The notes below the pieces were generated by a model. The model saw nothing but the letters and a program-made list of their open reading frames with translations. It was not told the origin of the DNA and made no database searches. From IMG/VR virus record IMGVR_UViG_3300037458_000572: 61,734 nt of DNA, one strand, 5' to 3'. This DNA comes from a virus. The number at the start of each line of letters is the position of its first letter. The stretch's first letter is position 1. A program made the position numbers and the translations under genes. Shown in pieces: positions 23,214 through 42,344 of the stretch.

Positions 23214-23391
23214 GCACCCCTCCTTTCTGCCAATCGCGGATCGAACAGGTAGGGGGATCCGGCTCGTATCGCACGGCCCAGGGGTTGCCCTCGCTCTCCG
23301 CCTGCACCAGCGCCATGACCAGCGCCGGTTCGGTGTCGTACACCCCGGGGCAATGATTCACTGCCGCCACAATCTCGCCGCTGAAATTCAT
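23200..23391 (-). pseudogene. truncated paralogue of the SLT N-terminus
   Basis: The 63-aa ORF segment EPALVMALVQAESEGNPWAVRYEPD parallels DPALVMAIVAVESGCEPAAARYEPD of the adjacent full-length gene. DNA similarity is also visible. Confidence 0.5.
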
Positions 23392-23412
23392 TTCGCAACC
23401 TCCGCAACTAGT

Positions 23413-23655: not shown

Positions 23656-23656
23656 T

Positions 23657-24316
23657 TTAATTTTTTTTCTTCAGTCTATTTATTCTTTTATATTCGTTAG
23701 CACAACCTTTGTGCCCTCTATTTTGTCCATCTTTTGTTATAATTAAGTTTTGTTTTGAGTCATATTCTTTGCAAATTGGGCATTTTATATTATTGGAATC
23801 GCCGCTTTCTTTTAATGCACGTTCTCTCTGGTGCAAAAGCATATGATATGCTTGGTTCTCGCATACAACGAGGTTGTTGTTGCTGTTATCTTTCCTGTCT
23901 CCATTAACGTGATGGATGACTACTCCTTCACGAAGAGTAGTTCCTAATATTTTTTCTACGATAAATATATGCTCTAAAACATAATTTTTGATGGCTCTTT
24001 TATGCCCAGGAATATGTATCATTACATATCCATATATATGACTTATTTTTCCGTTTTTCCAATTTGCGTGTTTAACGCCTTTGCGCCAACGATCACAGCC
24101 GCAAGACTTTGTTTTGTTTTCAACCAGGTAGGGCGACAATACAGCACAATGATTGCCACAATCACAAACACATTCCCATTTAGCTCTATACTTTTTTGGG
24201 TTATTTGGTTTATAATGTATTCTTTTTAAAGCAACCAATTTCCCAAATCTTTTCCCTGTTAAATCTTCGGCCTTCCAAGTCATTTTTTTGCCTTCCATGT
24301 GTTGTCGGTCGGTCAT
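23657..24316 (-). CDS. HNH homing endonuclease
   Basis: 219 aa. HHVNGDRKDNSNNNLVVCENQAYHMLLH is an HNH motif. Cys clusters CVCDC and CGC are also present. Confidence 0.85.
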   Translation of the reverse strand: MTDRQHMEGKKMTWKAEDLTGKRFGKLVALKRIHYKPNNPKKYRAKWECVCDCGNHCAVLSPYLVENKTKSCGCDRWRKGVKHANWKNGKISHIYGYVMIHIPGHKRAIKNYVLEHIFIVEKILGTTLREGVVIHHVNGDRKDNSNNNLVVCENQAYHMLLHQRERALKESGDSNNIKCPICKEYDSKQNLIITKDGQNRGHKGCANEYKRINRLKKKN

Positions 24317-24380
24317 ATTTGGGGCTTTATAATCATCAGATATGGCGATTATCTCTAACAGAAAATCAATTTGGCCCTTT

Positions 24381-24426
24381 CATAAAATAAAAGGGCGCGC
24401 GGCCACCTACGCCAAACGCGCCCTTT
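24381..24426 (-). terminator. rho-independent terminator
   Basis: On the minus strand, stem AAAGGGCGCG/CGCGCCCTTT is followed by TATTTTAT. It lies downstream of 24449..24682. Confidence 0.7.
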
Positions 24427-24448
24427 GAAATTTGCTTCTGCCCGCTGC

Positions 24449-24682
24449 CTATCCAGGCGGGTCCTGGGCCTGGGCCTCGATTATCGACGTCGCAAAGTCT
24501 TCCATCCCCTGGGCCTTTTCCAGGTCCTTTCGAACGTTCTTTATATACCGCCGGAGTTCTATCGCATCCTCTGCGATCCGCGCGCTGTGGCTGAGACCCG
24601 CGAGCGCCTGTCTCTCCAGCCGCTCGATGCCGATATCCGCGATATAAATCACCGCAGCGATCACTTCTTTGGTCGTGTTCAT
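24449..24682 (-). CDS. hypothetical protein
   Basis: 77-aa helical-looking ORF, followed by a terminator. Confidence 0.5.
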   Translation of the reverse strand: MNTTKEVIAAVIYIADIGIERLERQALAGLSHSARIAEDAIELRRYIKNVRKDLEKAQGMEDFATSIIEAQAQDPPG

Positions 24683-24939
24683 TTTTGCCTACCTTGTGAT
24701 TTTGACGTTGCCGGACGTAAAAAAAAACCGCCCGAGATGTGTCAACGCTCACAAGTAAGCGCCCAGGCCCTCGCGGAGTCCCGGCATCTCGGACGGAATC
24801 TTTTGAACCGTCAAATACAGCACCCCCTCTCGGCGCCTCATTGGCTCCCAAGGGATGGGCGCTACTTGTGCTTTTGACGGTTTTATTCTCGCACATACTG
24901 CCCCGCGTCGTCAACATGATCCGTGGTAGCTTCCGGGCC

Positions 24940-26562: not shown

Positions 26563-26760
26563 TCACTTACCCTCCCGGCCTTCTATGAACCTGTCCCAAT
26601 CCTCCCGCGTGTACCGACGGAACGCCTTTACCCTGGCGCAATCTTCGGACGGCAAAAGCAGATCGACCTGGGCCGCTAGTGCGTCCAGGTCGTTCAGTGT
26701 GCGGCGCCTTAGCGCCTCGATTGATTGTTTTACCAGCCTTAGTTCGTCGTAGGAACGCAT
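26563..26760 (-). CDS. hypothetical protein
   Basis: 65-aa helical-looking ORF in the early operon. Confidence 0.45.
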   Translation of the reverse strand: MRSYDELRLVKQSIEALRRRTLNDLDALAAQVDLLLPSEDCARVKAFRRYTREDWDRFIEGREGK

Positions 26761-26815
26761 GCTTGACGATCACAACTTAGAAATGTTAGTATATGACGGC
26801 GTTGATTAGCGCATA

Positions 26816-27061
26816 TCAGGTGCAGGGGGACGTAATCTTCCCGGAGCGGTGGTCGTATCGTCCAGGGAAGACCTCGGTAAGAGGCCGTCCAAGCACCCGG
26901 GCGATCTCGCAGGCCACCGTTAACGAAGTGGCCTTGCCGTCGCGCACCAGGTAAATCAAGGTTGCGCTGACGTTGAGACGCCGCGCCATCGCCGCAGGTC
27001 GGGCGCTGCTGTCCCGTATCGCGGCCTTGAACATCTCGATTTTGATTTCTTCAGGTGTCAT
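26816..27061 (-). CDS. Cro-like HTH regulator
   Basis: 81 aa with AAMARRLNVSATLIYLVRDGKA as an HTH. It is the first gene of the leftward early operon and is divergent from the cI-like gene. Confidence 0.6.
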   Translation of the reverse strand: MTPEEIKIEMFKAAIRDSSARPAAMARRLNVSATLIYLVRDGKATSLTVACEIARVLGRPLTEVFPGRYDHRSGKITSPCT

Positions 27062-27152
27062 TAGGTTTAATCTGGTTTTAATATTTCAACTTAATTTAAA
27101 TTTATTAAATGTAACTTAGATTGTCAAGCTATTTTTTCAATTAAGTTAAACT
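27062..27152. promoter_or_regulatory. divergent promoter/operator region of the lysis-lysogeny switch
   Basis: 91-bp AT-rich spacer. Leftward promoter: TTGACA (27127-27122), 17 nt, TAAATT (27104-27099). Rightward promoter: TTGTCA (27121-27126), 16 nt, TAAGTT (27143-27148), ending 4 nt before the cI-like ATG. Repeated AACTTAATT (27089), AACTTAGAT (27113) and inverted AATTAAGTT (27140). Confidence 0.6.
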
Positions 27153-27809
27153 ATGGATTCTTTAGCAAAAAGAATCAAGTCAGTCCGCATCGGCGCGGAT
27201 TTAAACCGTTCGGCCTTTGCTCGATCTTTAGGCGTTTCGGCCGCGCACATATCTGCTGTCGAAAAAGGAAAGCCGGCCAGTGAAGCTTTTTTAAAACTGG
27301 TGGCTTTAAAGTATAAGGTGCAAGAAGAATGGTTGCTTAGAGGTGCGGCCATGTCGGTATCCCAAACCCAGCAGCCATTCGAGCCGCGCGGCAAGTGGCA
27401 GCCATCGCTGACCATAGAGGAACTTACCGGGATCCACGCCGGTCTCGGCATGGGGTGCGCCGTGGATCTGCTGAGCGCGATATACGCCTCGAAAGACGAA
27501 GCGCTCATACGCGCCATATACTCTAACCTTCAGACATTCGCGGGCGCTGTTCGCGAGCGCGAAAAGCGGCTGGATATAGAGGCGGCGCTTAATAAATTAA
27601 AGTCCGAAACGAATGTTTTGCGGGAAGAGGTTTCCGAACTGCGCGCAATGGTGCTGCAGGCGCCGTCGCTGGCGGCGAATTATTTGGGACCCGAACGCCG
27701 CAACGGCGCCGACCGCCGGCAAGAAGTGGCAAACTCGACGTTGAGCAGTGACCGGCGCGGGGGGGACGACCGGCGTGGGAATGCGTTGAACAACCATAAC
27801 CATTCATAA
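27153..27809 (+). CDS. cI-like XRE-family repressor
   Basis: 218 aa with an N-terminal HTH LNRSAFARSLGVSAAHISAVEKGK and a coiled-coil-like C-terminal half. No S24 peptidase motif was seen. Confidence 0.8.
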   Translation: MDSLAKRIKSVRIGADLNRSAFARSLGVSAAHISAVEKGKPASEAFLKLVALKYKVQEEWLLRGAAMSVSQTQQPFEPRGKWQPSLTIEELTGIHAGLGMGCAVDLLSAIYASKDEALIRAIYSNLQTFAGAVREREKRLDIEAALNKLKSETNVLREEVSELRAMVLQAPSLAANYLGPERRNGADRRQEVANSTLSSDRRGGDDRRGNALNNHNHS

Positions 27810-27829: not shown

Positions 27830-28930
27830 GTGGCCGTCATCATGCTTAAAGACGGCCGCTGGGTCGTCTACTATCGGGAGTTCCGCCCTGACGGCAAACC
27901 CTACCTCAAGCGCGAATACTTCGGCCGAGGTCCCCAGGCCGAGGCTTCTGCACGGGCAAAAGACAAAAGCTTGAACCTCGGCGCCCGCCGGCCGCAAACC
28001 GCAACGGCGGAAGGCCCCACCTTCGCCGAGATCGCCCGCGAATATTTCAACTCCCACCGCTTTGCATCTCCCGGTGCGCGTGACCAGCACCGCCTGCGCA
28101 TGGTCTCGCGCCTGCTGCCATTCTTCGGCCCGCTCGCCGCCACCCGCGTCGCCGACGCCGACCTCGACCGCTACATCGCCGCCCGCCGCCGCGACGTGAC
28201 CGATTCGACCATCCGCCGCGAACTCGTTGACCTCAAGGCAATCTTCAACTTCTCCGCCCGCCGGCGCCCGCCCCTCATCGCCTTCAATCCCGTGCGGGAC
28301 TACCGCATCCCGCGCGAAACCCTCGAAATCATCATGCCGCCGACAGACGCCGAATTTTCGGCGATCATGGATCACGCCCCCGAGCACCTCCGACGCATCC
28401 TGCTCTTATCTTACTACCTCGGGCTGCGCCCGGGGCCGGTCGAGTGCTACCGCCTGCGCTGGGAGAACTGCGATTTCGGCGCCAACACCATCCTGATCCA
28501 CGGCGCCAAGAAGGGCGGCCCGGTGAAGCGCCTCGTCCCGATCCACCCGGATCTCATGCCGCTCATGCGCCGGTGGCGGTCTCTCGACGCAGACCGCGGT
28601 ATCCCATGGGTCATCCATTGGGGCGGGAAAACCATAAACAAGATCGCCACCGCTTGGGCCAACGCGCTCGAAAACGCGGGCATCACACGCCGCCTGCGCC
28701 CCTACGACATGCGCCACCTGTTCGTAACCCGCGCGCTAGAGCGCGGGGCCGACATTAAACCCCTCGCCGAGATCGTCGGCTCTCGCCCCGAAACGCTCAT
28801 GCGGTTTTATCAGCACGTTTCCGCCGCAGCCCACCGCCACACCGTCGGCTTGATCCCACCGGCGCCTGGTAATAACGCCGCGCCCATTAAGTTATCACCA
28901 AAACGCAATATAAAACGCTGCAATATCTAA
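27830..28930 (+). CDS. int: tyrosine integrase
   Basis: 366 aa. Motifs: YYLGLRPGP (Arg), MRHLFVTR (H-x-x-R) and RFYQH (Tyr). It lies immediately downstream of the repressor gene. Confidence 0.9.
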   Translation: MAVIMLKDGRWVVYYREFRPDGKPYLKREYFGRGPQAEASARAKDKSLNLGARRPQTATAEGPTFAEIAREYFNSHRFASPGARDQHRLRMVSRLLPFFGPLAATRVADADLDRYIAARRRDVTDSTIRRELVDLKAIFNFSARRRPPLIAFNPVRDYRIPRETLEIIMPPTDAEFSAIMDHAPEHLRRILLLSYYLGLRPGPVECYRLRWENCDFGANTILIHGAKKGGPVKRLVPIHPDLMPLMRRWRSLDADRGIPWVIHWGGKTINKIATAWANALENAGITRRLRPYDMRHLFVTRALERGADIKPLAEIVGSRPETLMRFYQHVSAAAHRHTVGLIPPAPGNNAAPIKLSPKRNIKRCNI

Positions 28931-28946
28931 TAGATATGCAGCGTTT
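28913..28946 (+). terminator. near-perfect 34-bp palindrome overlapping the int stop codon (terminator and/or recombination core)
   Basis: aaacgctgcaatatcta a tagatatgcagcgttt read directly. There is a one-base bulge, and it is followed by only a short T-run. Confidence 0.5.
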
Positions 28947-29032
28947 CACTCCCCTAACAGGGTTTTTCTTGATGCCTTAACCACAAGCCCTGAACATCAT
29001 TGCGGTGGAGATAAATTTGTATCACCGACACA

Positions 29033-29272
29033 TCATATTAGATCCCAATCTGCCGGGCACTCATCACCAATTGGAACACGAAAACGTATTCGCGGGGCTC
29101 CCGATATGCTGTAAGGCTCTATCTCCCCCGGCCTTCCGCCATAAAAACAATCGCCATCGACCCATGCCAGCCTTTTCGCACAGCGGGGGGCACAGCGCTT
29201 CTTGTTTTTGGTTTCTCTTGCGCACCCGAAACACGGAGAACAATACTGGTCAGCGTTCCCGTTGCCGCGCAT
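29033..29272 (-). CDS. hypothetical Cys-rich protein
   Basis: 79-aa ORF, the last gene of the late operon. Confidence 0.4.
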   Translation of the reverse strand: MRGNGNADQYCSPCFGCARETKNKKRCAPRCAKRLAWVDGDCFYGGRPGEIEPYSISGAPRIRFRVPIGDECPADWDLI

Positions 29273-29278
29273 TTAAAA

Positions 29279-29521
29279 TCATATTTCCTTTCTGCAATGC
29301 ACCGCGCCGGCAGCGTTTTCGCACGCCTCGACGATCAGTTCCTGTTGATACTGTATAGCCTCTTTTATACTTTCGAGGCACGATAGCAGATGGTTCAAGT
29401 CTTTATCCGACAGTTCTCCATCTCTCGCCAACCGGGCATGGATGTTTTGCAGTAGATTTATGGCTTGCGATACACGGGATGCAAAGGGTTCCAGTAAACC
29501 AGTGCGTCGTTTTTTTTCCAC
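29279..29521 (-). CDS. hypothetical protein
   Basis: 80-aa helical-looking ORF. Confidence 0.45.
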   Translation of the reverse strand: MEKKRRTGLLEPFASRVSQAINLLQNIHARLARDGELSDKDLNHLLSCLESIKEAIQYQQELIVEACENAAGAVHCRKEI

Positions 29522-30713: not shown

Positions 30714-33700
30714 TTATCTCTTAAACGTCTCTTTGTACCACCGCGACGCCCGCTTAACCGTCTCGCGGTCTTCCTGTGAAAGTTCGTTTAAAAACTTCGT
30801 CCGATACTTATTTGGCAGCGCGGCCAGCGGATGCGCCCGGTCAACCGAAATCTTTAAGCCTTTCATGGTCCCGCCGAGGTCCTTATACTTATTGAGATAC
30901 CGCTCGGCCGCCTTGGCGTCCCCGTACTTGATCGCGGTCTTGTACCAGTAAAGCGCGTTGCTCCGGTCGGTCGGCTCATGGAACGGCCGCTCGATGTTAC
31001 GATCCTCCAGGAACCTGCCCACCATCTCGCGCGCGCCGTAGTAGGCCGTTTCTCCCGGGTTGGCCGAATAGCTGAAGGTCCGGAGCACGTCCTCCCACAC
31101 CTGCCCGGCCACTGTGCCCTCTTTCATCGGACGGCCGGCGGCGCGCCGGTAGAACCCTTCCAAAGACAGCATCCGCGCCACGTACTCGCCACGGTCGCGG
31201 ATCGGGCGGGGGCGGGCAAAGTCGGGGTAGATCGTTTTTCCTCCGATCAGCTCGCCGAACCCTTTGATGTCCGGCCGGATCCCCTGCAGCATTTTGTTTA
31301 CGGGCTCGCGGGCGGACTGCCCCAGCCACTGGTAAACCGTTTGCTTGCCATTAACGAGGTCCCGCATGTCCTCCGGGAAGTCGTGCAGGTTGAACCAGGA
31401 AAGCGCATCGGAAAGCGCCCCTTGCAGGCGCAGCGTCATGATGCTGCCGTCCGCTCTCCGCCCGAGGATCAGGTGCATCTGCCGGCGGCCCTCTTCGCCC
31501 AGCTCTTCTTCTTCGTCCGGGAAGACGAGCGCGTTCCACAACGCGATCGCCCCGTACAGCATGAATGCCTTGGCCCCCAGGAAAGCCGCCTTCTTGCCGG
31601 CCACGGCTCCAAGCAGCGCCACCCGCCGGCCGGCCGGCTCGCCCTCTATCGAAATGTTCCGCATCAGCCGCCAGTAGCGGGGGGCGTTGATTTCAGAGTT
31701 ACCCGTTATCATCACCTGGCCGTTCTGACGCATGACCCAAGTACCGTTTGCGGTCTTTGGACACCAGACGGTCCCGGTGTAATGCTCGCGGGTGTTTTCC
31801 CACTTGTTGAGCTGAATCTTGTCCCTTTTTTTTACATAAAGGCTATAGCATTTATCTTTACCTTCGCCGCAGTTCTTGGGTCTTATATGGCCAGCCTTGC
31901 CAAGCATGTAGCAAAGTATCTGGAAGGCATCGAGGACTGGTCCGGCATTCTGCGGGAAAGCGACAAGACTATTTACTGAAGTTCCTTCCGCCGCCAGCAT
32001 TGCATCGTACATGGCTTGGCACTCATTTAAACCAAGTCGAGTCACGATTCCGGGTAGGTCGTCTTTGGATTTAAAAACAGCACGGATCGCTTTCAGCTTC
32101 TCACTTTTTAATCGGAAGCAGATAACTCCGGTGCCGCGGTGAACCGCTTCCGTTGAAATATAATCGGAAAAGTCCCGCCTGATGTTTTCAACATCGGCTT
32201 CTTTCTTCTGATAAAGCATTGCCTCAAACGATTTTGGGGAGTGCTTACGCACTCTAAAATACCCGTCAGTTACAAGCCACCCCAACAAAGCCGCATCCGT
32301 TACGGAAAGCACGCTCTGTCCCACAAACTCATGGGGGGCTACTGTTGGAATATGCTGATGAGTCTTTAAGTCTTTCGCAAAAATAAATTTGCGTTGGTCT
32401 TTGTATTTCTCGATCACGACAACCCTGTGGTCTTCGGTAAATTGATATTTAAATCCCCATGCGTTTTGAATGGTAACAAGGTCTCCGTCGAACGGAAAAA
32501 CCGCTTTATCCTGGGCTGGTTGCCATTCGGTGGTGCGCTCCTTCATATTGTATGTCAGAACTTCCTCGCCTATCACAAGCTCGGTATGGTGTTTCCATCC
32601 ACGCCGGGTAAGTATCTCGGTATGATCAGGGACGCACCACGAGTAAAACGGGATCAGCTTCCGTCGCAGCCAGCGCCCACCCTTTGAAAGCCCGCCGTAG
32701 TCGCCGATCAACTCCCGCGCCAACAGTCCCGCCTTGCGGTCGATCTCGGTGTCGTCAATCGCGTTTACCTTATTAGGCAGGCTTGCCCCATAAACCCGCT
32801 CGCCGGCCGCGACCCGCTCCTTGAAATACCGGAAAGCCGCCAGTCGCAGCACATTCTCGCGGAATTGCGTAAAATTCTTGGAACCGTGCCAGAACCGCTG
32901 GATCAGGTCGATCGCCACGTTGTCCCTGGCGCCCATCGCGCGCTCCAACTGGCGGAAATCCGCCATCTTGCCGATGTCCGGGATGTCGTGCGCCGTGATC
33001 CCGCCGATTACCCCGTGTTTCAGCGCCGTCCTGAACTCTTCTTTAAGCTCCGGGGTCATGTTTTTGTTGTAGTGATAGGCCCATAGGTCTTTTATCGCCC
33101 GGCCCGCGTACCGCAAAATGCGCGGATCGTAGGCCAGCGTTATGTCCAGATCGCCCGAGGTGTTGTTCAAATTGTATTTTATGACGCGCAGCGGATTGAT
33201 CAGTATCCACCGCTTCCACATATTCATGGTCGCCTCGGCGGCCTGCGATACCACGTTGTCCTTCGGCGATCTCTGGAAGTCGGCGCCATCCATCACCTCG
33301 GCCAGCTCCGCCGGTATTACCCAGCGCACATCCGCCCCCCGCGCCAAAACCGGCCGCACGTCGCTGGCTTCAAGCTGCCGGTTGCCCGCGAGCACCTCGC
33401 CCAGGATCTGGTCGTTGATCGAGTTGGTCATGTACCAGGCCGTGCCCGGCCGCGGCACCCACTCGGCCCACCCGGTCGACCCCGCCCGCGGCGCACGTTC
33501 CTTCATTACATCGCGCCAGGTCTTGAGTCGGCGGCCGAGGGTCTCCTTTATTTCACGGTTGCGGTCGCCGATCGCTTTGAATATCATTCGCGCCTGGGCG
33601 GCACCTTCGCCGTCCGTGTTGGCAAGCCATCCCAAATACCTAAATAGGCTACCGTCGGGGTCGAACCCAACCGTATCGGACGCATCGCGCTCGGCGAGGG

Positions 33701-36700
33701 CCTCCACCACGTTTTCAAACGGGCCTGGATCTAATCTTCCGCGCTCGGCCAGCTTGGAAATTTGACCAAGCCCCATGGCAATTTTCTGGCGATAGGGAAG
33801 CAACGGGTCGTTCTGCGGCTGGCGCATATCTGCTGCCGTTATTTCCGGCATAAGTTGCCGCAGTTGGGCGGCCTTGACCTCATAATAGTTTGATAAATTG
33901 TCGCGTTTGGCTTTTGATTTAAGCTCGCTGAGGATATTCGCGTGCTCCCCGATCTCGTCCAGCACCTGCTTTCTCGCCAGCCGTTCGAAGCCCTGGGCCA
34001 GCACTTCGAACTCGGATTCGAGGTACTTGGTGTTGTAGTCCTTGATCGAGCCCGTGCGCGCGTACTGCCACCCTGCTTTCCGCACCCGCACCTCGCCGGC
34101 TTTCTGGTCGACGCCGGCGAACCGCTTGGCGTTCGCGTATTCAAGCACTTGATGATGGAAATACCGCTCGTCGTTCAACACCTGCTCGGGGAGCATCTTT
34201 TCTTTGACCAGCTGCTTGCGCAGGTCTCCGATTGCCTGCTGACGCCGCGCGATCGCCGCCGCCGCCGCCGGTTGTCGGGCGAGCGCGGCGTCTACCCTGG
34301 CAAGCGCATCGTCCACCTCGTCCTTGCTCTGGAACCCAAAAGCGATCTCGCCCTGGCTCGCTACCATGTCCTGCCAGTCCTCCAGCACCCCGCCCGGCTC
34401 CATGTCCTTCTGCATGTCGTCGAGCACCAGCTTTAGCCCAAACAGCTTGTAGTCCTCGGCCTTGAGGTTTTTCGGGTCCAGAATGTCCTTCAACTCCATG
34501 ATCGCCCGCGCTCGGCCGTAGTCGCCCGCCTCCATGAACTCGCGCAGCAGCACATTCTCGCGGCCAAAATACCTGTTCGGCATTTTCGGGAACATCCGCC
34601 CGGGCGTAAAAGTCGCCGCCGTCATCTTGGCTTTCTCGCGGATCACGGCAAGCAGCTTCGGCTTGCCGGCCCCTTGAGCGTCCCGGTAGCGGTCGGCAAC
34701 CCCCGCCGGCAGCACATCGTCCACGATGTCGTATTCTTGCCCTTGTGGGAGCGGCGTCCTCGCCGCGATTCCTTTCTCGCCTTCGAATAACTGGTTTTGC
34801 TCGATCCCCAGGCGCCCTTCGCCAGAACGCTCGTAAATCTTTCCGCTTTCGACCTTTCGCACCACGCCGCGCGCGGTAACTGAAAAAAGCGACACCACTG
34901 AGTCTATGATGTCACGCACCAGGTCCAGCATTCCGCGCAGCGTGCCGCGGTGCTCCTTGCGGTTCAGCAGCTCCCGCGCCAGCCAGTGGGCGCGGTCCTC
35001 CGGGCCGCCGATGTCCTGCTTGTTGACGGGCGTCCACTTGCCGTTATTCGCGTCGAACCTGATCTTGGAGCGCATGGCAAGGACTTCGTTTTTTGTAATT
35101 ATGCCGGAGTCTTCAAGCCAATGCTCGCCTTCGTGCGCTATGGTGTACTCGTTCGTTCCGGCATCCCTGACGAGCTTCATTTCGCCGCGGCCTGTAAGGT
35201 ACGACCCCCGCGCTGTCACTTTTACGTTGGGATCTGGCTTTCGCCCGTAATACATCTCGACCGCCGCGCTATCGGCGGAAATATGGTCCACCACATGCAC
35301 ATAGGCCGATCGCCCGCCCTGCGTCCTGATCCATATCCCTCCCGATTTTTCATCCCGCTCGACGCTCTGGCCGCGGTAGTGCTTCCGCAGCATCTCCAGC
35401 GGCACGTCCCGCAAATCGACGCGGCGGGCGGCCTGCGGCCGCAAATCATATTTTGTGGCTTCCGCCTTGACTTTCCCCAGCCACTGATTTAGCATCTTGT
35501 CAGAGCCGGATTCGGGGAAGTTAGACGCTGTCGAACTAAGGGCAGAAATGTCGTCCCCTTCTCCGGTTCTTGTTATTTGAATGTCGGATATAAAGACGTT
35601 GTGAAGCTCGTTCCGTGCGTCCTTGATTTCTCGCACCGTCAACCGCGCAAAATAGTTCTCGCCGTCTAATTCGATTCGGTTCAGGTAGTTGTGGTACTGA
35701 AGGACATTGGTGCGCAGATGGGGCTTTCGTTCAAGTTCCGGGTAGATCGGGACGGCGCTTTCCGTGATCGAATCCAGTTGAGGGACGGCGCGCAGAATTA
35801 CCTCACGATTTTTATGGCCGGCAATTTTGTCAAAGGTCTCCATCACGAACGATATTTTGCGGCCGTCGTGACGATTTACCACCGATTTTATCGCTCGGTA
35901 CGCTTGCTCTGCGGTCTCCTTTGAAATTGGGGGAGTTTCTATCCGTATCGGATCAGCCGCCATCACCCGCTGAAACTTCTCAAATTCGGAAGCCTCGCGC
36001 CCCGCCAGTGAATACAACTCACCCCCCCGATCGGTATCGCCGGCCAGAGCGGCTTCATTCGGTTTCGGCGGAGATTCCTTAATCGCATCCTGCACCGCGG
36101 CGCGGTATTCGTCTTCCAGCGGAATGTCGACGCCGGCGATCTTGCCGGCGGGTTTGGCCAGCTCGAAGTGCTGCTTTGCGACGGCGCGCAGGTCTTCAGG
36201 AACTTTTTCAGCGGCCGCAACCAGTTTCTTGAACTCGGATTCACCGGTTCGCTCAAGTTTTTCCTTGGCAGCTTCAATAACCTGTTTCCTTGTGCCGGCG
36301 CGGCTTTCGATAGCCAACCCGGTCGTTGCTTCAGAAACTGTCCAAGAAAATTCTTCGCCGGGTATATTGTGCGTGAATGTTTCAGCCCATGTGACTATTT
36401 TAGCGGGACGGGCATGCGGGACGGGCTTGAACCCTTGATTCGTGAAAATATAAAATTCAGCTTTTGGGGTAGGCGCTTCTTCAGCAGTTGCATCCGCGCC
36501 ACCCTCTATTCCGACTTCCGCCTTCGCACTTCCGCCTTCCTCATCTGCTTCCCGCTCGATGTTTGCGAAATTAAGCAGGTTCCTTATCGCGTTGCCTTCG
36601 TCGGCAACAGCACGGTTCACTAGGGACGGCAGCGCCTGCAGCTCGCGCTCGATCTCGGCCAGGCGCTGCTCGGTGGCGGCCAGTTCGTCGGTCTGCTTGA

Positions 36701-39700
36701 AGGGCGACTTGGATATTTTTTCGTACTCGGCAAGGTCGGCTTGCTCTTTTTTGATATGTTCTTTTAACTCGGCTGGGCGCTTGAAAATACCGTCGATGCT
36801 GTTCTCAAGCGAACTCATCAGCCCGCCGATCGTGTTGACCGATCGCTTAATCAGGAAGTCATCGCCTTTGCGGCCGAAACCTACTGCGATGTCGGGTGCG
36901 TCTCTTAGATTCCACTTTTCTTCTTTTTTATTGTTCCACGCATCCCAATCGACACCGTAATCAGGCCGGACACCGACCTGCACGCGCTGGCCGTGCGCCG
37001 TGAACTGAATATGCGCCGGAGTTACGTTGTTGACATACTCTTTCCATTCTTTCTTACCAATTAACTGCTTCGGGTGCTTGGCGTTCTCGGCCGCCACGAA
37101 TGCCGCCAGGGCTTCGTTGACATCCTTGCGCTCGGCCGGCTTGCCGTTCAGGGTGAACTCTTTGAGTTTGCCGCCGGGTACAGTCTTTTCGAGCTCGGCG
37201 GCGGTCTTTTCGGCGTCTTCTAACGTCTTTTCGGTTTCCTCGATCCGCGCCTGGGTCCTTTCGGTATTACGCCGGGCCATGGAGACTTCATGCTCCCAGC
37301 GCAGCTTCGCCCGCCGCAGCTTCTTGGCCTTCAACTCGACGTCGGTTTTTTCGAATACCAGCGGATTGCCGGAAAAAGCCGCCATCATTTCGGCGAGACT
37401 CGCCTGTTCTTCGGATAGCGGGTCGTCGAACTCGCGGCTCTCGATGTCTCCGACCAGCATCTGGTCGATGAACCGCTGCTTTTTGGTGAGCCGGTCGTAC
37501 ATCACCGAATCAAGCGTCGCGCGAACACCGTAGTTAAAGATCCGCACCTTGGGGTTGGTGTTTCCCTCGCGCACGATCCGTCCGTTCCTCTGCTCGATGT
37601 CCATCGGCCGCGGCGGAACGTCGACGTGGTGGGCCGCGATCAAAAGATCCTGCATGTTGACGCCGACCCCAAGCTTCTGAGAACTGCCGATGATCACCCG
37701 CACCGCTCCGGAGCGCACCCGGTCGAACAGCGCCTCGCGCGCGGAGTCTCCTTTCGCGTCCGTCACCAGCGCCACTTCGGATTTCGGGATGCCCTTGTCG
37801 ATCAGCTTCTGCCGCAGGTCTTCGTGCGAATTGAAAGTCTTGGTGCTGTCGTTCTGGCTGTCCAGGAAAACCACCTGCGTCGATCGGTTTCCGGAGGTTC
37901 CCTGCCAGATCTCATGGACCTTTTCGACCACCTTGTTGAGCTTGCTGTCCGGGTGGTCCTCGTAGGAGGCAGATACCAGGCGCATGTCGACCGCAGCCTT
38001 CTTGGCCAGTCCGAACAGCACTACAGGTACGTGGCGGCTTTCCCTCTTTTCCTTGCCGGTCAGATGGTCCCATGCTTCGCGCGCGGCTCTAAGCTCGTCG
38101 ATGAACCGGTTCAGGGAGGGCGTGCGTTCCACGGTCACGAACTCGGGCTTGCCGCCGGCCACGTCCGGAAGCCGCAGGCCGGCGTCCCGGGTAAGCTGCA
38201 CGTCGGCCGCCGTGCGCCACATGGTCAATAGCTCGGTCCCGTTCACGTACTTGTTGAACCGTTCGACCTCTCGATAGGTGCCGGTCTCGGTCTCTTCGAG
38301 GGCGGTCTGCGTCTGCCCGAACGTGGCCGCGAAATCGTCGAACAGGTCTACCCCGTAATCCTCCAGCAGGTCCGGGCGCACGTAGCGGATGATCGTCCAC
38401 AGCTCGGCCGTCGTGTTGCTGATCGGGGTCCCGGTCGCCAGGATTACGTTCTTCCCGCCGGTCTTCTCCTGCACGTAGCGGGACTTCATCAGCAGCGACG
38501 TCGACCGCTGGGAGGCCCCCTGGTCGATCCCTTTCACGCGCTGCATCTTGGTGAAGAATTCGCTGCGCTTATAAGCATGCGCCTCGTCCACCAGAAGGGC
38601 ATCGATCCCCATCTTCTCGAAGTTGAGCGCCTTGTCCTTGCGGCGGTTGAGCGCCTTCTCGATCCGGTCCTCTTTGCGCTTTTTCAACGCTTCCAGGTCT
38701 TTGACGGTGAAACTCTTCTTGCCCTCTTCCGCTTCCGCGTCAGTGATCGCCTCCTCGATCATTTTAATTTGTTCGCGGATGAACCCGATCTCGCGGTCCA
38801 CGTCGTCGGCGATCGCATCGAAAAAGCTGTGCGGCACCACCACGGCGTCCCAATCTCCGGTTGCGATCTGCGACAGCAGCCGCTGCCGGTAGCGCGCCGC
38901 GCGCTGCTTCTCGTCCGGGATCAGCACACGTGCGCCGGGGTACAGCTGGTTGAACGCCTTGCGGTACTGGCCGATCGTGCTGTTCTGCACCACGATCATG
39001 GGCTTCTTGGCGGTTCCCACCCGCCGCATCTCCATGGCGAGCGATATGAAGGAATAGGTCTTTCCGGTGCCGACCCCGTATGCGAAGATGGTCGACTCGC
39101 GCAGGCCTCGCGCCACGAACCGTTTTTGCAGCGGCCGCAGCTTGATGTGCGGATTGGCGCCCGGGAAGTGCTCGATCTTTGGCGTTTCGGTTTTGCGGAG
39201 GACGTGCCCGTTCTTTTCCTCGTTGTAGACCTCGGCGAGCTTGTCCTTCCACTTTTCGCTCGCGCGCGCCCAGCGCAGGAATTCCTCCTGGATTTCCTCC
39301 TGCTTGGCCTGGGCCGCTTCGGTCGCTTCGTCGTCGCGGGCGGTCCTTTTGCTACCGTTTTCGTCCTCGTAGGTGTAGGTGATGACCGGCCGCTTCATGT
39401 TCAAAGCGGACAACACAAGATCATCTCCACCGCGCCCGCCGGCGCCCCAGGTTTCGTTGTTCAAGGCTGTGGCGTAACCGTCCTCGACCGCCAGATGCCA
39501 GCTGCTTTGCTCTGAATTTTTGCTGTAGGTCGCTGTCGCCGTGACCCCCATGGTCTCTTTCAGGAAGTCGGATATCGCCTCGCCCGGTATCCAGGGGGTG
39601 CCCAGGCGGAAGTGGATGAACTCGATGTCGACCGGATCCGGCTGCACGGCGGAAAGCGCTTTCACGTTGCTGGCGTACTCCGGGTTGTCCTCTGCCGCGG

Positions 39701-42344
39701 CCTCGGCCGCTTTGAGCTTCTTCTTGACGTTGCCGGATAGATAAAGGTCCGGTGCCTCTAAAAGACCGGTCTCCGGGTTGATGAAGGCCATGCCTTTTTC
39801 GACCAGCTCGGCTTTTACCTCCTCCTCGCTCCGCGCCGTCAGCTTGGCGATATATCCGGTGTCCAGCCCGGCCCGGTAGACCTCGGAGAGGGTCGCCGCC
39901 TCCTCGATGCTGCCGGCCGTCTCCGGCTCGACGAACGGGTAAATCGTGCGCTTGGTAAAAACGTCGGCCTTGGTGAAAGTCTTTACCCGGCGGTTTACCG
40001 GCTGGCCCTTGTTCGGCCCGCTCTTGACCGTATCGGCCACGATGGAGACCTCTTCGTTCTCCAGCGCGTCCACGATCGGAAATTCAAGGTCGATCCGTTT
40101 CAGGAACGAGTTGCCCGGTTCGCCCACGTTGCCGTACTTCTTAACGAAGTCGTCATAGGCCCGGTTCAGCTCGGCGCGCAGGGCGTCCAGCTCGGCATCG
40201 GTCGCATCGGTCGTATTGCTGCGATCGATCAGCCGCTTGTGGATGTCTTTGATTTTAAGGTACTGCCGAGCGCGGGCCTTGCGGGCGGGGGAGGATAACG
40301 CCAGGGACTCCTTGCCCTTGTCGTTGATCAGTGTCGGGGCAACGAGCTTGCCCTCCGAAACCATGTAAACTTCGCCGTCGCGCTCGACCAGGGCGCCGTC
40401 GATGTCCTTCATCGTGGCGTACTTGACTTCGGTCTCAACCGCGGCCGCCGCGTTGCCCTCGCTCATGATGTTTTCGGGGAGGGCCTCGATCGCCCGGGCG
40501 ATCTGAGCGTTCAGGTCCGCGCCGGTCGGCTCCACCGTGTACTCGTCCGCCCCGCGCATGCTGCCGGTCATGGCGTGCTTGCCCATCACCATTTCGGGGT
40601 GTTTGACGAAATACTCGTTGATGAAGGCCGGCGGCTTGCCAGGCGCCACCTCCACCTGCTCGGCAACCCGAAAATCCTGGTTGAGCCCGTAGCTCGTCGC
40701 GTCTTTTTTTCTGAAAACCAGTATATCAGTCACGACCTCGGTGCCGGCGTTCTTTTTAAACGCCGTGTACGGCAGCCGGATCCCGCCCACGAAGTCGGCC
40801 TTCTTGGCGAGCGCCGCGCGGGTCTCGCCGTTCGTCACGGCGTCCATGGTGAAATGGCTCGTGATCGCCACCACCAGACCACCCGGCCGCACGGCGTCGA
40901 TCGACCGGCCGAAAAAATAGTTGTGGATGCTCCATTTGCCGTACTGCGGTCGCTTGGGGTCGAACACGGAGAACTTGCCGAAGGGGAAATTCGAAATCAC
41001 CAGGTCTTGGCTGTTGTCGGGGATCCCGCGCGCCTTCTCGAAGCCCATCACCTGCACGCGCGCCTGTGGGTATAACTTGGTCAGGATCTGGCCGGTGATG
41101 GAGTCAAGCTCGACCGCGTTGATCCGGCTGGCGCCGGCCAGGTCCTGGGGCATCAAGCCGATGAAATGCCCGGCGCCGGCGGCGGGCTCGGTCACGGCGC
41201 CGCCCTTGAACCCCAGCCGGCGGACGAGCGACCACATGCGGTCTATAACGTCCCGGTCGGTGTAGTGGGCGTTTAGCGTGCTGGCCTTGGCCGCTTCCCA
41301 TTCCTCCTCGGTCAGCGCGCCGCCCAGCTTCGGGTGCAGCTTGCGGCCGTACTTGCGCTCCCAATTCTGGTACTTTTCGAGGGTGCTGCCGTAGAGGATG
41401 CGGTCGGCGGCCATGCCGCGATCGATGATGCGGTCCAGCGCCTTGGTGTACTCGTCGTTGAAGATTTTCTGCGCGAAGGCGCCCCAGCCCGTATATTGGG
41501 CCAGCACCTTCTTTTCTTCGGGGGATGGGTTGCGGTTTTCTGCGGTGAGGCGCTTGACAAGCTCGATGGCCCGGATGTTGGCCTTGATCTTGCCTTCGTC
41601 GCCGGGCGGTACGATCTCGTCGCCCGGCTCGATGACGTGGTTGCGGTTCTCTGGGGCTAACTCAGCAGACCGCTTAGAATCTTCTCGCGCTCTTCGTCCG
41701 GCAGCGGCTTCGGGGGATTCGAGGATAGCGCCGGTCCGTCCGCCGGCGCCACGATCCGGCCGAACACCTTTTCCTCGGCCAGGTCGCGGGCCTCCCCCTT
41801 CAGTCTCAGCCGCTGCAGCTCCAGGCTCGCCAGTTGCAGGTTGCTCACCAGCTCCGCCTTCAGCTTGCCCGGGCTCTCCCGGAACAGCTTCGCCACGCGC
41901 TGGGGCTGGTTGTCCAGCAGCCAAACCAGCCGTGCCTCGAACATCGGGTCGCTCTCCGGGTTCTCGATCTGCAGGCTCGACGGTTCGAGCCCGTCCAGTT
42001 CCTTCAGGCTCAACGCTCTCATCTTCCACCTCCTGGGTGGGGGCCTGTGCCTCACCTTCAATTATAGTCTGTTTTGGTGCGTTTTCAAGTGTTTTTTCTG
42101 CCTCTTGTGGGAGCGGCGTCCCCGCCGCGATTTTTTCATCAACCTCGCCGCCTGCCTCTTTCACTTGCCGGAGGATGTCCGCCCGTTCCTCTTCCAACTC
42201 CCTGATATAGTCCTTGACCGCGTTCACGGCTGCGGCGTGCGCCTCGTACCCGTCACGCTGGTAGTCCGCCGCCATGGCCCGCAGGATGGTCTCTTCGTGC
42301 TTTCCGGCCCCGATCCGCTTCAAGCATACCGATAGGCTGCTCAT
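30714..42344 (-). CDS. giant polyvalent protein (N6-adenine MTase + SNF2/DEAD-type helicase + HExxH zincin + intein-bearing C-terminal domain), DarB-like
   Basis: Uninterrupted 3,876-codon ORF whose start forms an ATGA overlap with the upstream gene. The domain motifs are listed as separate features. Confidence 0.85.
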   Translation of the reverse strand: MSSLSVCLKRIGAGKHEETILRAMAADYQRDGYEAHAAAVNAVKDYIRELEEERADILRQVKEAGGEVDEKIAAGTPLPQEAEKTLENAPKQTIIEGEAQAPTQEVEDESVEPEGTGRARTVEPADREPGERPDVRGTAGLAAGQPAPARGEAVPGEPGQAEGGAGEQPATGEPGAAAAETEGGGPRPGRGKGVRPDRGAGGRTGAILESPEAAAGRRAREDSKRSAELAPENRNHVIEPGDEIVPPGDEGKIKANIRAIELVKRLTAENRNPSPEEKKVLAQYTGWGAFAQKIFNDEYTKALDRIIDRGMAADRILYGSTLEKYQNWERKYGRKLHPKLGGALTEEEWEAAKASTLNAHYTDRDVIDRMWSLVRRLGFKGGAVTEPAAGAGHFIGLMPQDLAGASRINAVELDSITGQILTKLYPQARVQVMGFEKARGIPDNSQDLVISNFPFGKFSVFDPKRPQYGKWSIHNYFFGRSIDAVRPGGLVVAITSHFTMDAVTNGETRAALAKKADFVGGIRLPYTAFKKNAGTEVVTDILVFRKKDATSYGLNQDFRVAEQVEVAPGKPPAFINEYFVKHPEMVMGKHAMTGSMRGADEYTVEPTGADLNAQIARAIEALPENIMSEGNAAAAVETEVKYATMKDIDGALVERDGEVYMVSEGKLVAPTLINDKGKESLALSSPARKARARQYLKIKDIHKRLIDRSNTTDATDAELDALRAELNRAYDDFVKKYGNVGEPGNSFLKRIDLEFPIVDALENEEVSIVADTVKSGPNKGQPVNRRVKTFTKADVFTKRTIYPFVEPETAGSIEEAATLSEVYRAGLDTGYIAKLTARSEEEVKAELVEKGMAFINPETGLLEAPDLYLSGNVKKKLKAAEAAAEDNPEYASNVKALSAVQPDPVDIEFIHFRLGTPWIPGEAISDFLKETMGVTATATYSKNSEQSSWHLAVEDGYATALNNETWGAGGRGGDDLVLSALNMKRPVITYTYEDENGSKRTARDDEATEAAQAKQEEIQEEFLRWARASEKWKDKLAEVYNEEKNGHVLRKTETPKIEHFPGANPHIKLRPLQKRFVARGLRESTIFAYGVGTGKTYSFISLAMEMRRVGTAKKPMIVVQNSTIGQYRKAFNQLYPGARVLIPDEKQRAARYRQRLLSQIATGDWDAVVVPHSFFDAIADDVDREIGFIREQIKMIEEAITDAEAEEGKKSFTVKDLEALKKRKEDRIEKALNRRKDKALNFEKMGIDALLVDEAHAYKRSEFFTKMQRVKGIDQGASQRSTSLLMKSRYVQEKTGGKNVILATGTPISNTTAELWTIIRYVRPDLLEDYGVDLFDDFAATFGQTQTALEETETGTYREVERFNKYVNGTELLTMWRTAADVQLTRDAGLRLPDVAGGKPEFVTVERTPSLNRFIDELRAAREAWDHLTGKEKRESRHVPVVLFGLAKKAAVDMRLVSASYEDHPDSKLNKVVEKVHEIWQGTSGNRSTQVVFLDSQNDSTKTFNSHEDLRQKLIDKGIPKSEVALVTDAKGDSAREALFDRVRSGAVRVIIGSSQKLGVGVNMQDLLIAAHHVDVPPRPMDIEQRNGRIVREGNTNPKVRIFNYGVRATLDSVMYDRLTKKQRFIDQMLVGDIESREFDDPLSEEQASLAEMMAAFSGNPLVFEKTDVELKAKKLRRAKLRWEHEVSMARRNTERTQARIEETEKTLEDAEKTAAELEKTVPGGKLKEFTLNGKPAERKDVNEALAAFVAAENAKHPKQLIGKKEWKEYVNNVTPAHIQFTAHGQRVQVGVRPDYGVDWDAWNNKKEEKWNLRDAPDIAVGFGRKGDDFLIKRSVNTIGGLMSSLENSIDGIFKRPAELKEHIKKEQADLAEYEKISKSPFKQTDELAATEQRLAEIERELQALPSLVNRAVADEGNAIRNLLNFANIEREADEEGGSAKAEVGIEGGADATAEEAPTPKAEFYIFTNQGFKPVPHARPAKIVTWAETFTHNIPGEEFSWTVSEATTGLAIESRAGTRKQVIEAAKEKLERTGESEFKKLVAAAEKVPEDLRAVAKQHFELAKPAGKIAGVDIPLEDEYRAAVQDAIKESPPKPNEAALAGDTDRGGELYSLAGREASEFEKFQRVMAADPIRIETPPISKETAEQAYRAIKSVVNRHDGRKISFVMETFDKIAGHKNREVILRAVPQLDSITESAVPIYPELERKPHLRTNVLQYHNYLNRIELDGENYFARLTVREIKDARNELHNVFISDIQITRTGEGDDISALSSTASNFPESGSDKMLNQWLGKVKAEATKYDLRPQAARRVDLRDVPLEMLRKHYRGQSVERDEKSGGIWIRTQGGRSAYVHVVDHISADSAAVEMYYGRKPDPNVKVTARGSYLTGRGEMKLVRDAGTNEYTIAHEGEHWLEDSGIITKNEVLAMRSKIRFDANNGKWTPVNKQDIGGPEDRAHWLARELLNRKEHRGTLRGMLDLVRDIIDSVVSLFSVTARGVVRKVESGKIYERSGEGRLGIEQNQLFEGEKGIAARTPLPQGQEYDIVDDVLPAGVADRYRDAQGAGKPKLLAVIREKAKMTAATFTPGRMFPKMPNRYFGRENVLLREFMEAGDYGRARAIMELKDILDPKNLKAEDYKLFGLKLVLDDMQKDMEPGGVLEDWQDMVASQGEIAFGFQSKDEVDDALARVDAALARQPAAAAAIARRQQAIGDLRKQLVKEKMLPEQVLNDERYFHHQVLEYANAKRFAGVDQKAGEVRVRKAGWQYARTGSIKDYNTKYLESEFEVLAQGFERLARKQVLDEIGEHANILSELKSKAKRDNLSNYYEVKAAQLRQLMPEITAADMRQPQNDPLLPYRQKIAMGLGQISKLAERGRLDPGPFENVVEALAERDASDTVGFDPDGSLFRYLGWLANTDGEGAAQARMIFKAIGDRNREIKETLGRRLKTWRDVMKERAPRAGSTGWAEWVPRPGTAWYMTNSINDQILGEVLAGNRQLEASDVRPVLARGADVRWVIPAELAEVMDGADFQRSPKDNVVSQAAEATMNMWKRWILINPLRVIKYNLNNTSGDLDITLAYDPRILRYAGRAIKDLWAYHYNKNMTPELKEEFRTALKHGVIGGITAHDIPDIGKMADFRQLERAMGARDNVAIDLIQRFWHGSKNFTQFRENVLRLAAFRYFKERVAAGERVYGASLPNKVNAIDDTEIDRKAGLLARELIGDYGGLSKGGRWLRRKLIPFYSWCVPDHTEILTRRGWKHHTELVIGEEVLTYNMKERTTEWQPAQDKAVFPFDGDLVTIQNAWGFKYQFTEDHRVVVIEKYKDQRKFIFAKDLKTHQHIPTVAPHEFVGQSVLSVTDAALLGWLVTDGYFRVRKHSPKSFEAMLYQKKEADVENIRRDFSDYISTEAVHRGTGVICFRLKSEKLKAIRAVFKSKDDLPGIVTRLGLNECQAMYDAMLAAEGTSVNSLVAFPQNAGPVLDAFQILCYMLGKAGHIRPKNCGEGKDKCYSLYVKKRDKIQLNKWENTREHYTGTVWCPKTANGTWVMRQNGQVMITGNSEINAPRYWRLMRNISIEGEPAGRRVALLGAVAGKKAAFLGAKAFMLYGAIALWNALVFPDEEEELGEEGRRQMHLILGRRADGSIMTLRLQGALSDALSWFNLHDFPEDMRDLVNGKQTVYQWLGQSAREPVNKMLQGIRPDIKGFGELIGGKTIYPDFARPRPIRDRGEYVARMLSLEGFYRRAAGRPMKEGTVAGQVWEDVLRTFSYSANPGETAYYGAREMVGRFLEDRNIERPFHEPTDRSNALYWYKTAIKYGDAKAAERYLNKYKDLGGTMKGLKISVDRAHPLAALPNKYRTKFLNELSQEDRETVKRASRWYKETFKR
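31698..32636 (-). mobile_element. intein with LAGLIDADG homing endonuclease, in frame within the giant ORF
   Basis: 313 aa. It starts with Cys (FYSW/CVPDHTEIL). Block B is TEDH. LAGLIDADG-like motifs are LLGWLVTDGYF and MYDAMLAAEGT. It ends VMITGN/SEIN, with +1 Ser. The region is visibly lower in GC than its flanks. Confidence 0.85.
34745..34770 (-). repeat. 25-nt GC hairpin motif, copy 2 (in frame, encodes IAARTPLPQ)
   Basis: The plus strand reads gtgggagcggcgtcctcgccgcgatt, inside the giant ORF. Confidence 0.85.
35121..35135 (-). other. HExxH (HEGEH) zincin-type metallopeptidase motif within the giant ORF
   Basis: TIAHEGEHWLED read in the translation. The fold has not been verified. Confidence 0.5.
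37540..39140 (-). other. SNF2/DEAD-like helicase core within the giant ORF (approximate bounds)
   Basis: Walker A GTGKT (39056-39070), DEAH (38577-38588), ATGTPISN, and motif VI QRNGRIVREGN (37560-37592). Confidence 0.85.
40690..41290 (-). other. N6-adenine DNA methyltransferase domain within the giant ORF (approximate bounds)
   Basis: Motif I VTEPAAGAGHFIG (41156-41195) and motif IV-like ISNFPFGK (40973-40993). An upstream QYTGWGA segment is typical of MTase-helicase fusions. Confidence 0.8.
41657..42022 (-). CDS. nested out-of-frame gene inside the N-terminal linker of the giant ORF
   Basis: 121 aa (MRALSLKELDGLEPSS...EKILSGLLS). The SD AGGAGGTGG ends 5 nt upstream of the ATG. Third codon positions are strongly G/C in this frame, but A/T-rich in the giant-ORF frame over the same span. 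Confidence 0.6.
   Translation of the reverse strand: MRALSLKELDGLEPSSLQIENPESDPMFEARLVWLLDNQPQRVAKLFRESPGKLKAELVSNLQLASLELQRLRLKGEARDLAEEKVFGRIVAPADGPALSSNPPKPLPDEEREKILSGLLS
42061..42088 (-). promoter_or_regulatory. sigma70-like promoter upstream of the nested gene
   Basis: Minus strand: TTGAAA (42088-42083), 16-nt spacer, TATAAT (42066-42061). It sits about 35-40 nt upstream of the nested-gene ATG and inside the giant-ORF coding sequence. Confidence 0.55.
42107..42132 (-). repeat. 25-nt GC hairpin motif, copy 3 (in frame, encodes IAAGTPLPQ)
   Basis: The plus strand reads gtgggagcggcgtccccgccgcgatt, immediately upstream of the internal promoter. Confidence 0.85.

Follow-up and report, generated by a model that had tools for sequence, protein, structure and literature searches.

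A probable mobile LAGLIDADG-type intein in a conserved motif of a DarB-like polyvalent phage protein

Analysis of the viral record IMGVR_UViG_3300037458_000572 from IMG/VR (61,734 nucleotides; this whole stretch is called the window below) revealed a 939-nucleotide segment on the minus strand, at positions 31698–32636, which very probably represents a mobile LAGLIDADG-type intein in the precursor of a DarB-like polyvalent protein. The window is phage DNA and encodes a terminase large subunit, a head-tail adaptor-like protein, a primase and an internal virion protein. The segment is free of stop codons and translates into 313 amino acids (CVPDHTEIL...QNGQVMITGN). It lies in frame inside the open reading frame (ORF) 30714–42344, which encodes 3876 amino acids, and corresponds to precursor residues 3237–3549, with ...RRKLIPFYSW preceding and SEINAPRYW following it. 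An initial annotation, made from the sequence alone, had proposed at these positions an in-frame insert of 313 residues with Cys1, a TEDH block, two LAGLIDADG helices and a terminal Asn followed by Ser, and all of these elements could be located there on the minus strand (TEDH at residues 67–70). The guanine-plus-cytosine (GC) content, which had been described as lower than that of the flanks, was indeed 47.9% in the insert compared to 60.4% in the remainder of the gene, and 52% compared to 76–81% at third codon positions. Measured against other 939-nucleotide windows of the same gene the dip has a z-score of -4.2, and base composition changes abruptly at each of the two junctions. That the plus strand encodes a gene at this place is unlikely, the overlapping ORF 30978–31979 being without Pfam match and antisense to a high-GC gene; a second plus-strand ORF (32394–32687) also overlaps the insert region.

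A search with the spliced extein sequence returned 63 clusters, one of which (P0002) was an identical fragment of the same protein and was set aside. All 62 remaining homologous clusters were uninterrupted through the motif [FYW][SA]W-x-E[IV]N. The nearest intein-free homologue (P0009) was 84% identical at the protein level, and its DNA (L006) was colinear with the window at 80–84% on both sides. Compared to this locus, the window carries an exact 939-base-pair insertion between the Trp codon TGG and the next (+1) codon; the empty site reads ...CCGTTCTTCAGTTGG/CAAGAAATCAACGCCCCGCGATAC... (a slash marks the insertion point or intein boundary throughout). The initial annotation had left room for homologues in which the 313 residues form an integral conserved domain. 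This is ruled out by the 62 uninterrupted homologues, as intein-less alleles are the rule across the FYSW-SEIN junction.

Conservation was scored on the 62 homologues, aligned over 1227 residues, as the mean frequency of the commonest residue in windows of 15 residues. PFYSW/SEINAPRYWR had the highest value of the whole alignment (0.86), tied with the adjacent LARELIGDYG window, and around the junction Pro, Trp, Glu and Asn were invariant. The +1 position of the 62 intein-free alleles was occupied by Met (33), Leu (13), Ile (6), Val (3), Gln (2), Lys (2) or by Ala, Cys and Thr (one each). Ser was never found there, and the nucleophile therefore came with the intein. Only one empty allele, P0026 (IPFWSWCEINAPRYV), has Cys at +1; an intein may have been lost precisely from it, or the site may be one that was already fit to be invaded.

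An AlphaFold2 model of the insert, built on eight homologues, reached a mean predicted local distance difference test (pLDDT) score of 92.8 and a predicted template modelling score of 0.91. As modelled, the insert has a HINT fold and a LAGLIDADG fold, and the two LAGLIDADG acids (Asp124 and Glu217) close the helices 112–124 and 203–217. Foldseek searches against the PDB placed PI-PfuI on top (E-value 1.8e-14; query-normalised template modelling (TM) score 0.70), followed by TliVMA, PI-TkoII and PI-SceI. Further matches were the free-standing LAGLIDADG protein I-DmoI (E ~5e-7, 20–21% identity), I-Tsp061I and the hedgehog autoprocessing domain 6tyy. The fold search points unequivocally to an intein and, together with the sequence relatives, the intein-less alleles and the occurrence in other hosts, settles the identity of the insert.

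Using tblastn against phage genomes, 145 records were obtained, with full-length matches at 26–27% identity lying inside DNA methylases, a DNA polymerase, a portal protein and others. The match in ShiLan gp65 (43313–44293) coincides exactly with the DNMT-2 intein curated by Kelley et al. (2016; PMC5050341, Table S2). BLASTP identified the Bethlehem RDF intein over its full length (E 3e-11) as well as the BillKnuckles TOPRIM intein (E 7e-7). Close relatives of the insert were found in unrelated hosts, among them an S-adenosylmethionine methyltransferase and a metallophosphoesterase-like protein; one further host was judged Rad52-like by eye, and the relative P0001 shows no more than a weak PF14528 signal. 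A profile of the family matched the NrdJ-1 intein among PDB sequences (E 2.7e-5), with AceL NrdHF as second-best match. In NCBIfam the insert matched PRK08332 (E 1.4e-5) at profile positions 951–1112, which is presumably an intein-bearing part of this ribonucleotide reductase model.

Scanning other phage contigs in IMG/VR yielded occupied alleles of the same motif. Locus L013 carries an intein 78% identical to that of the window (IPFYSW/...TGN/CEINAPRY), and L016 one of ~63% identity at the window's insertion point, both with Cys at +1. In L014 and L015 (1501–2448) the intein (~72%) sits two codons upstream (IPFY/...TGN/SWLEVNAPRY), so that the motif's native Ser is the +1 residue, and in L017, which belongs to a distant host subfamily, an intein of ~40% identity is followed by Thr (KAFY/...TGN/TYSRKNIP). 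The sampled ORFs of L013, L014 and L016, covering N-extein, intein and C-extein, are without stop codons. In every pair among the window, L013, L014 and L016 the inteins were 63–78% identical, compared to 44–51% over the 300 extein residues that adjoin the intein at either end. Pairs with L017 pointed in the same direction (~40% for the intein, 23–33% for the exteins), and in all five loci the GC content of the intein was lower than that of its flanks. As the inteins are more alike than the flanking exteins across hosts, the pattern fits a horizontal spread by homing and not co-descent. One more allele, L007 (GCA_030153525.1, JASEKR010024730.1, 1–3100), is occupied at the window's site (IPFWSW/CVPEDTEIL...VMITGN/CEINAP) by an intein of 67% identity. 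Separately, a free-standing ORF of 304 amino acids, 49% identical to the intein, was observed in L008 (305–1219; Logan SRR18045715). It lacks exteins, has start and stop codons of its own and adjoins an HTH_8 gene; it carries Gly in the Cys1 column and Arg at F:4 and lacks the terminal TGN, with both LAGLIDADG motifs intact. It appears to be a stand-alone endonuclease or regulator of intein origin.

An exhaustive HMMER search over 1.84 billion cluster representatives gave 5037 family matches at E<=1e-3, 2138 at E<=1e-10 and 222 at E<=1e-30. The insertion could be bounded in 135 of the best 148 matches. In 78 of these 135 it lies after P-F-Y and before [ST]-W, so that the native Ser or Thr becomes the +1 residue. 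The register of the window, after P-F-Y-[ST]-W, was found in 16 representatives, counting the window copy, and in these the usual Met or Leu at +1 is replaced by Thr (9), Ser (4) or Cys (3). The other 41 sit elsewhere, and at least 6 of the 14 examples listed from them occupy recognisable variants of this motif. As most of the closest relatives occupy the same motif, the window copy is an unremarkable example of an intein-motif pairing that is very common. About two thirds of the closest representatives reside in this one motif, and the family is a large phage family below the curated Pfam/TIGRFAM thresholds. Since the profiles PF14890, PF01079 and TIGR01445 score sub-threshold and PHROGs is silent, automatic annotation will miss most of the 2138 representatives. 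A second intein of this family was not found elsewhere in the window by hmmsearch over all six-frame ORFs.

To compare splicing residues, 146 representatives, drawn from clusters at <=50% identity, were aligned to the window intein, and block positions were assigned by sequence alignment (Table 1). The initial annotation had pointed out a penultimate Gly instead of the usual His. The Gly is there, but it is not peculiar to this copy: as it was found in all 146 relatives, it is a trait of the family and not a defect of the window intein. Absence of the penultimate His is common among class 1 inteins of phages, and Gly, Lys or Ser have been reported in its place; in the Bethlehem RDF intein, which was put into a splicing reporter and reportedly splices, the exchange of Gly316 to His raises precursor accumulation (Kelley et al., 2016; PMC5050341). 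The residue at this place is known to be polymorphic and does not define an intein.

Table 1. Residues at block positions of the window intein and in 146 aligned relatives.
Position	Window intein	Relatives
A:1	Cys	Cys 146/146
B:7	Thr	Thr 146/146
B:10	His	His 146/146
B:12	Val	Trp 127, Val 9, Phe 5, Ile 2, Cys 1, Met 1
F:4	Cys	Cys 146/146
F:13	Thr	Thr 139
G:5	Thr	Thr 137, Ser 8
G:6	Gly	Gly 146/146
G:7	Asn	Asn 144, Gln 2
+1	Ser	Thr 88, Ser 52, Cys 6
LAGLIDADG acids	Asp, Glu	kept in 146 and 143 of 146

Based on these residues, the 313-residue intein (36 kDa in its free form) would probably be excised from the 3876-residue precursor and the exteins ligated to a protein of 3563 residues (...IPFYSW-SEINAPRYW...), for which a tryptic peptide across the ligated junction, LIPFYSWSEINAPR, is predicted. 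Cys1 would form the thioester at the N-terminal junction with the assistance of Thr67 and His70, the N-extein would be handed to Ser+1, and cyclisation of Asn313 would free the intein without a penultimate His. The LAGLIDADG domain of the excised intein, with Asp124 and Glu217, would then cut intein-less alleles of the motif in co-infecting phages, and recombinational repair would copy the intein into the cut allele (homing). Splicing, endonuclease activity and the initiating cysteine are all predictions from the sequence.

Several observations weigh against this identification. Curated intein profiles remained below their cut-offs on the insert (PF14890 Intein_splicing, 15.6 compared to 35.8 bits; PF01079 Hint, 13.9 compared to 29.7 bits; TIGR01445, 12.2 compared to 24.5 bits), a single-sequence phmmer search against PDB sequences gave nothing meaningful, and PHROGs gave no match. 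The intein-profile comparison proposed in the initial annotation was therefore negative for the curated Pfam and TIGRFAM models, but positive for the family profile with NrdJ-1, for the RDF intein and for the fold. Both His residues usual in Asn cyclisation are missing, with Thr at F:13 and Gly at G:6, and B:12 is Val where most relatives have Trp. The +1 residue is Ser in the window, while the three closest alleles at the same point (L013, L016 and L007) have Cys. Finally, the L007 locus is full of frameshifts and stops, both in the exteins and at the intein end; either a prophage copy is decaying here or the assembly contains many errors, and decayed copies may therefore exist.

The unusual residue set, combining Cys1 with the class 3 triplet and a Gly-Asn end, poses the question of which cysteine initiates splicing. 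Since Cys at F:4 and Thr at G:5 are also present, this is not a textbook class 1 intein, and the distance of 19 residues between Cys292 and Thr311 equals that of C320/T339 in MP-Be DnaB (PMC2807308) and C124/T143 in MchDnaB1. On the basis of the alignment we nevertheless favour initiation by Cys1 (class 1), because Cys1 is invariant, class 1 inteins with Cys at F:4 exist and the similarity to the class 3 prototype is weak. It is possible, although clearly less probable, that the insert is a real intein in which Cys292 (F:4) initiates as in class 3, or in which a relay runs via both cysteines. Along such a class-3-like route the branched thioester at block F would form first and the N-extein would then pass to Ser+1, while Cys1 would be dispensable or would have another role, for example in a redox-sensitive disulfide. 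The family indeed carries the class 3 signature described by Tori et al. (2010; PMC2807308), with Trp at B:12 in 127, Cys at F:4 in 146, Thr at G:5 in 137 and Thr or Ser at +1 in 140 of the 146 representatives, and AceL NrdHF, the second-best PDB match mentioned above, belongs to class 3, has Met at B:12 and neither assisting His, and splices well (PMC7891396). However, Cys1 in all 146 clusters argues that it is needed, while class 3 inteins vary at position 1. Of the class 3 features, the window intein has Cys at F:4 and Thr at G:5, but a nucleophile stands at position 1 and Val, not Trp, at B:12; the window intein resembles Bethlehem TerL, the prototype of class 3, weakly (E 0.002) and over residues 5–189 only. 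The Gp206 intein of Catera is reportedly among three Trp-Cys-Thr (WCT) inteins that Tori 2010 gives as starting with Ser or Cys. This intein has been classed as class 3 (PMC3196547), but class 1 inteins carrying Cys at F:4 have been described and are polyphyletic (PMC3196547; PMC4031507), and the RDF relative was handled as class 1 (Kelley et al., 2016; PMC5050341). More speculatively, the family might be a mechanistic hybrid of class 1 and class 3, a view we consider rather doubtful. It derives from the finding that Cys1 and Cys F:4 are both present in 146 of 146 relatives, together with the W-C-T triplet, Thr or Ser at +1 and a Gly-Asn end without assisting His. Both cysteines would then be needed, for example in a thioester relay from Cys1 via Cys F:4 to the +1 oxygen nucleophile or in a redox-gated Cys1-Cys292 switch. 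If this were true, the family could preserve the ancestral form, carried by phages, that gave rise to class 3 inteins by loss of Cys1, and the two registers, two codons apart, would record a shift of the intein within its target site.

Two further explanations would do without splicing. The insert could be a decayed, splicing-inactive intein, in which case the mature protein would retain its 313 residues or the C-terminal module would be without function. The non-canonical Val at B:12, Thr at F:13 and Gly at G:6 might be read in this way, decayed or domesticated relatives occur (the frameshifted L007 and the free-standing L008, without Cys1, F:4 Cys and TGN), and an inactive intein pseudogene has been documented (PMC3196547). 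We regard decay as very unlikely, however: the whole gene of 3876 codons is an open reading frame, each catalytic residue matches the family consensus, the non-canonical ones included, and the same residue set is present in the Bethlehem RDF intein used in the splicing reporter by Kelley et al. (PMC5050341). Moreover, as the insert splits the most conserved motif of the domain, its retention would probably be deleterious. Even slightly less probable is a HINT autoprocessing domain, either of the bacterial intein-like (BIL) type or a releasing peptidase as in polymorphic toxins, that cleaves the polyvalent protein and does not splice. Polyvalent proteins frequently contain peptidases that process them (Iyer et al., 2017; PMC5512222), and HINT domains can part cleavage from ligation (PMC4031507). 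BIL domains, though, lack the +1 nucleophile (PMC4031507; PMC7664689), which is present here as Ser together with the terminal Asn and is always Thr, Ser or Cys in the family. The insert also carries a homing endonuclease domain and does not lie between domains, but interrupts a motif that is contiguous in 62 of 62 homologues, and the word intein is absent from Iyer et al. (2017; PMC5512222).

The host of the intein is a DarB-like polyvalent protein (Table 2). Its N-terminal two thirds correspond to phrog_10089, annotated as DarB-like antirestriction (1374.8 bits), and its modules comprise an N6-methyltransferase-like region, an SNF2 helicase (Pfam SNF2, ResIII and Helicase_C), LPD3 and an uncharacterised C-terminal module. 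As is typical for DarB-like polyvalent proteins, it is giant, combines methyltransferase and helicase modules and is encoded among virion genes. For the C-terminal (extein) module no family was obtained from Pfam (40 members) or PHROGs, and the same databases gave no function for six more distant hosts of the intein. A model of the module is mostly helical (pLDDT 77.2). Foldseek found no match for it in the PDB (best E 0.6), and in BFVD it matched, with E down to 1.6e-20, C-terminal pieces of many viral polyvalent proteins that are annotated as Zeta toxin, RelA/SpoT, DNA methylase or, in Anabaena phage A-4L, as "tail protein". Because these fold matches sit at the C-terminal ends of differently annotated polyvalent proteins, the module might tentatively be viewed as a carrier common to these proteins, with a possible role in virion incorporation or ejection. 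According to the initial annotation, the insertion site marks the domain as conserved and functionally critical. Its conservation is borne out by the site lying in the most conserved stretch, while the domain, which has no Pfam, PHROG or PDB match, may be functionally critical. The intein thereby flags P-F-Y-S-W-x-E-I-N-A-P-R-Y as a key conserved motif of the C-terminal module of DarB-like polyvalent proteins.

Table 2. Features of the host gene and its intein in the window (all on the minus strand).
Feature	Position	Strand	Basis
Host gene, 3876-amino-acid precursor, DarB-like polyvalent protein	30714..42344	-	ORF; Pfam SNF2-rel_dom, ResIII, LPD3; phrog_10089
N-extein, residues 1-3236, ending ...ELIGDYGGLSKGGRWLRRKLIPFYSW	32637..42344	-	motif conserved in 62 homologues
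Intein, 313 amino acids (very probable)	31698..32636	-	translation, model, Foldseek, profile and BLASTP relatives
Cys1 codon TGC, predicted block A nucleophile	32634..32636	-	Cys there in 146/146 relatives
Block B, T67-E-D-H70-R-V72: Thr B:7, His B:10, Val B:12	32421..32438	-	alignment; most relatives Trp at B:12
LAGLIDADG homing-endonuclease domain, ~residues 105-278	31803..32324	-	model helices 112-124 and 203-217; Foldseek: I-DmoI, endonuclease parts of PI-PfuI/PI-SceI
LAGLIDADG motif 1, LLGWLVTDG (residues 117-125), predicted catalytic Asp124	32262..32288	-	acid in 146/146 relatives
LAGLIDADG motif 2, MYDAMLAAEG (residues 209-218), predicted catalytic Glu217	31983..32012	-	acid in 143/146 relatives
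Block F, V290-W-C292-PKTANGTWVMRQ; Cys292 = F:4, Thr299 = F:13 (usual intein residue His)	31725..31769	-	alignment
Block G, QVMITGN: Thr311 (G:5), Gly312 (G:6, penultimate), Asn313 (G:7)	31698..31718	-	translation, alignment
Ser+1 codon TCT, first C-extein residue, predicted acceptor nucleophile	31695..31697	-	Met/Leu/Ile in its place in intein-free alleles
C-extein, residues 3550-3876 and stop codon, starting SEINAPRYW	30714..31697	-	translation, extein alignment

Other parts of the window also contain potentially mobile or acquired genes. An ORF of 219 amino acids on the minus strand (23657–24316) has an HNH_3 domain (E 8.6e-7) and lies in the lowest-GC island of the window (23101–24700, with GC falling to 31%), and probably encodes another homing endonuclease of this phage, a free-standing one. 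Two plus-strand ORFs match the Phage_integrase family (15026–15658, E 2.2e-10, and 27830–28930, E 1e-13), the former directly downstream of an island of 36% GC (13701–15000) in which all ORFs are short. Islands more than 1.5 standard deviations under the window mean of 58% GC were located at 301–1800, 13701–15000, 26701–27600, 28901–29500 and 60601–61700, and may be other acquired genes. The ORF of the terminase large subunit (10909–12399, minus strand, 496 amino acids) matched only the later part of two PHROG terminase profiles, and its start is overlapped by 8 bases by an ORF of 229 amino acids without Pfam match (12392–13081, minus strand), which might encode the small terminase subunit or a detached N-terminal portion. 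The internal virion protein (54982–56913, minus strand; phrog_511, E 3.5e-100) has a CBM_5_12 carbohydrate-binding module.

For annotation, the mature host protein should be given as 3563 amino acids and not 3876, and the segment as an intein. A phage LAGLIDADG intein as such is an already known type. New here are the size of the family, the two insertion points in one motif and the combination of an invariant Cys1 with the class 3 signature (W/V-C-T). We found no prior description of this host protein and motif as an intein site; among the papers searched, the only one that names both polyvalent proteins and inteins leaves them unconnected.

Compared to known systems, the host resembles DarB of phage P1 and other polyvalent proteins (PMC5512222) in its match to phrog_10089, its methyltransferase-like, SNF2 and LPD3 modules and the fold relatives of its C-terminal end, while this C-terminal module differs in having no Pfam, PHROG or PDB counterpart. 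With the class 3 inteins (MP-Be "DnaB"/TerL, MchDnaB1 and AceL NrdHF) the intein shares Cys F:4, Thr G:5, Ser or Thr at +1 and the 19-residue spacing, and most family members also have Trp at B:12; unlike them, its family has an invariant Cys1 and an invariant penultimate Gly in place of His, and the window copy has Val at B:12. PI-PfuI, TliVMA and PI-SceI likewise consist of a HINT domain split by a LAGLIDADG endonuclease (query-normalised TM 0.58–0.70), but they are 9–13% identical to the window intein and larger (366–537 residues). They also have extra DNA-recognition regions and canonical His-Asn ends. The DNMT-2 intein of ShiLan gp65 and the TOPRIM intein of BillKnuckles gp54, curated in Table S2 of PMC5050341, are full-length relatives of 22–27% identity with the same Cys1, Val B:12, Cys F:4 and TGN; their exteins are, however, a DNA methylase and a primase, with Ser (ShiLan) or Cys (BillKnuckles) at +1. 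The RDF intein of Bethlehem gp51, a metallophosphoesterase (PMC5050341), comes from an actinobacteriophage and not from a metagenomic phage of ~58% GC, resides in another host protein and site (HEGNHD/C...N/SRARDY) and is only 23% identical to the window intein. Nevertheless, it is a full-length homologue (317 compared to 313 amino acids), equally phage-borne and with a LAGLIDADG domain, and it has the identical Cys1, TxxH-R-V with Val at B:12, V-W-C with Cys at F:4, T-G-N and Ser+1.

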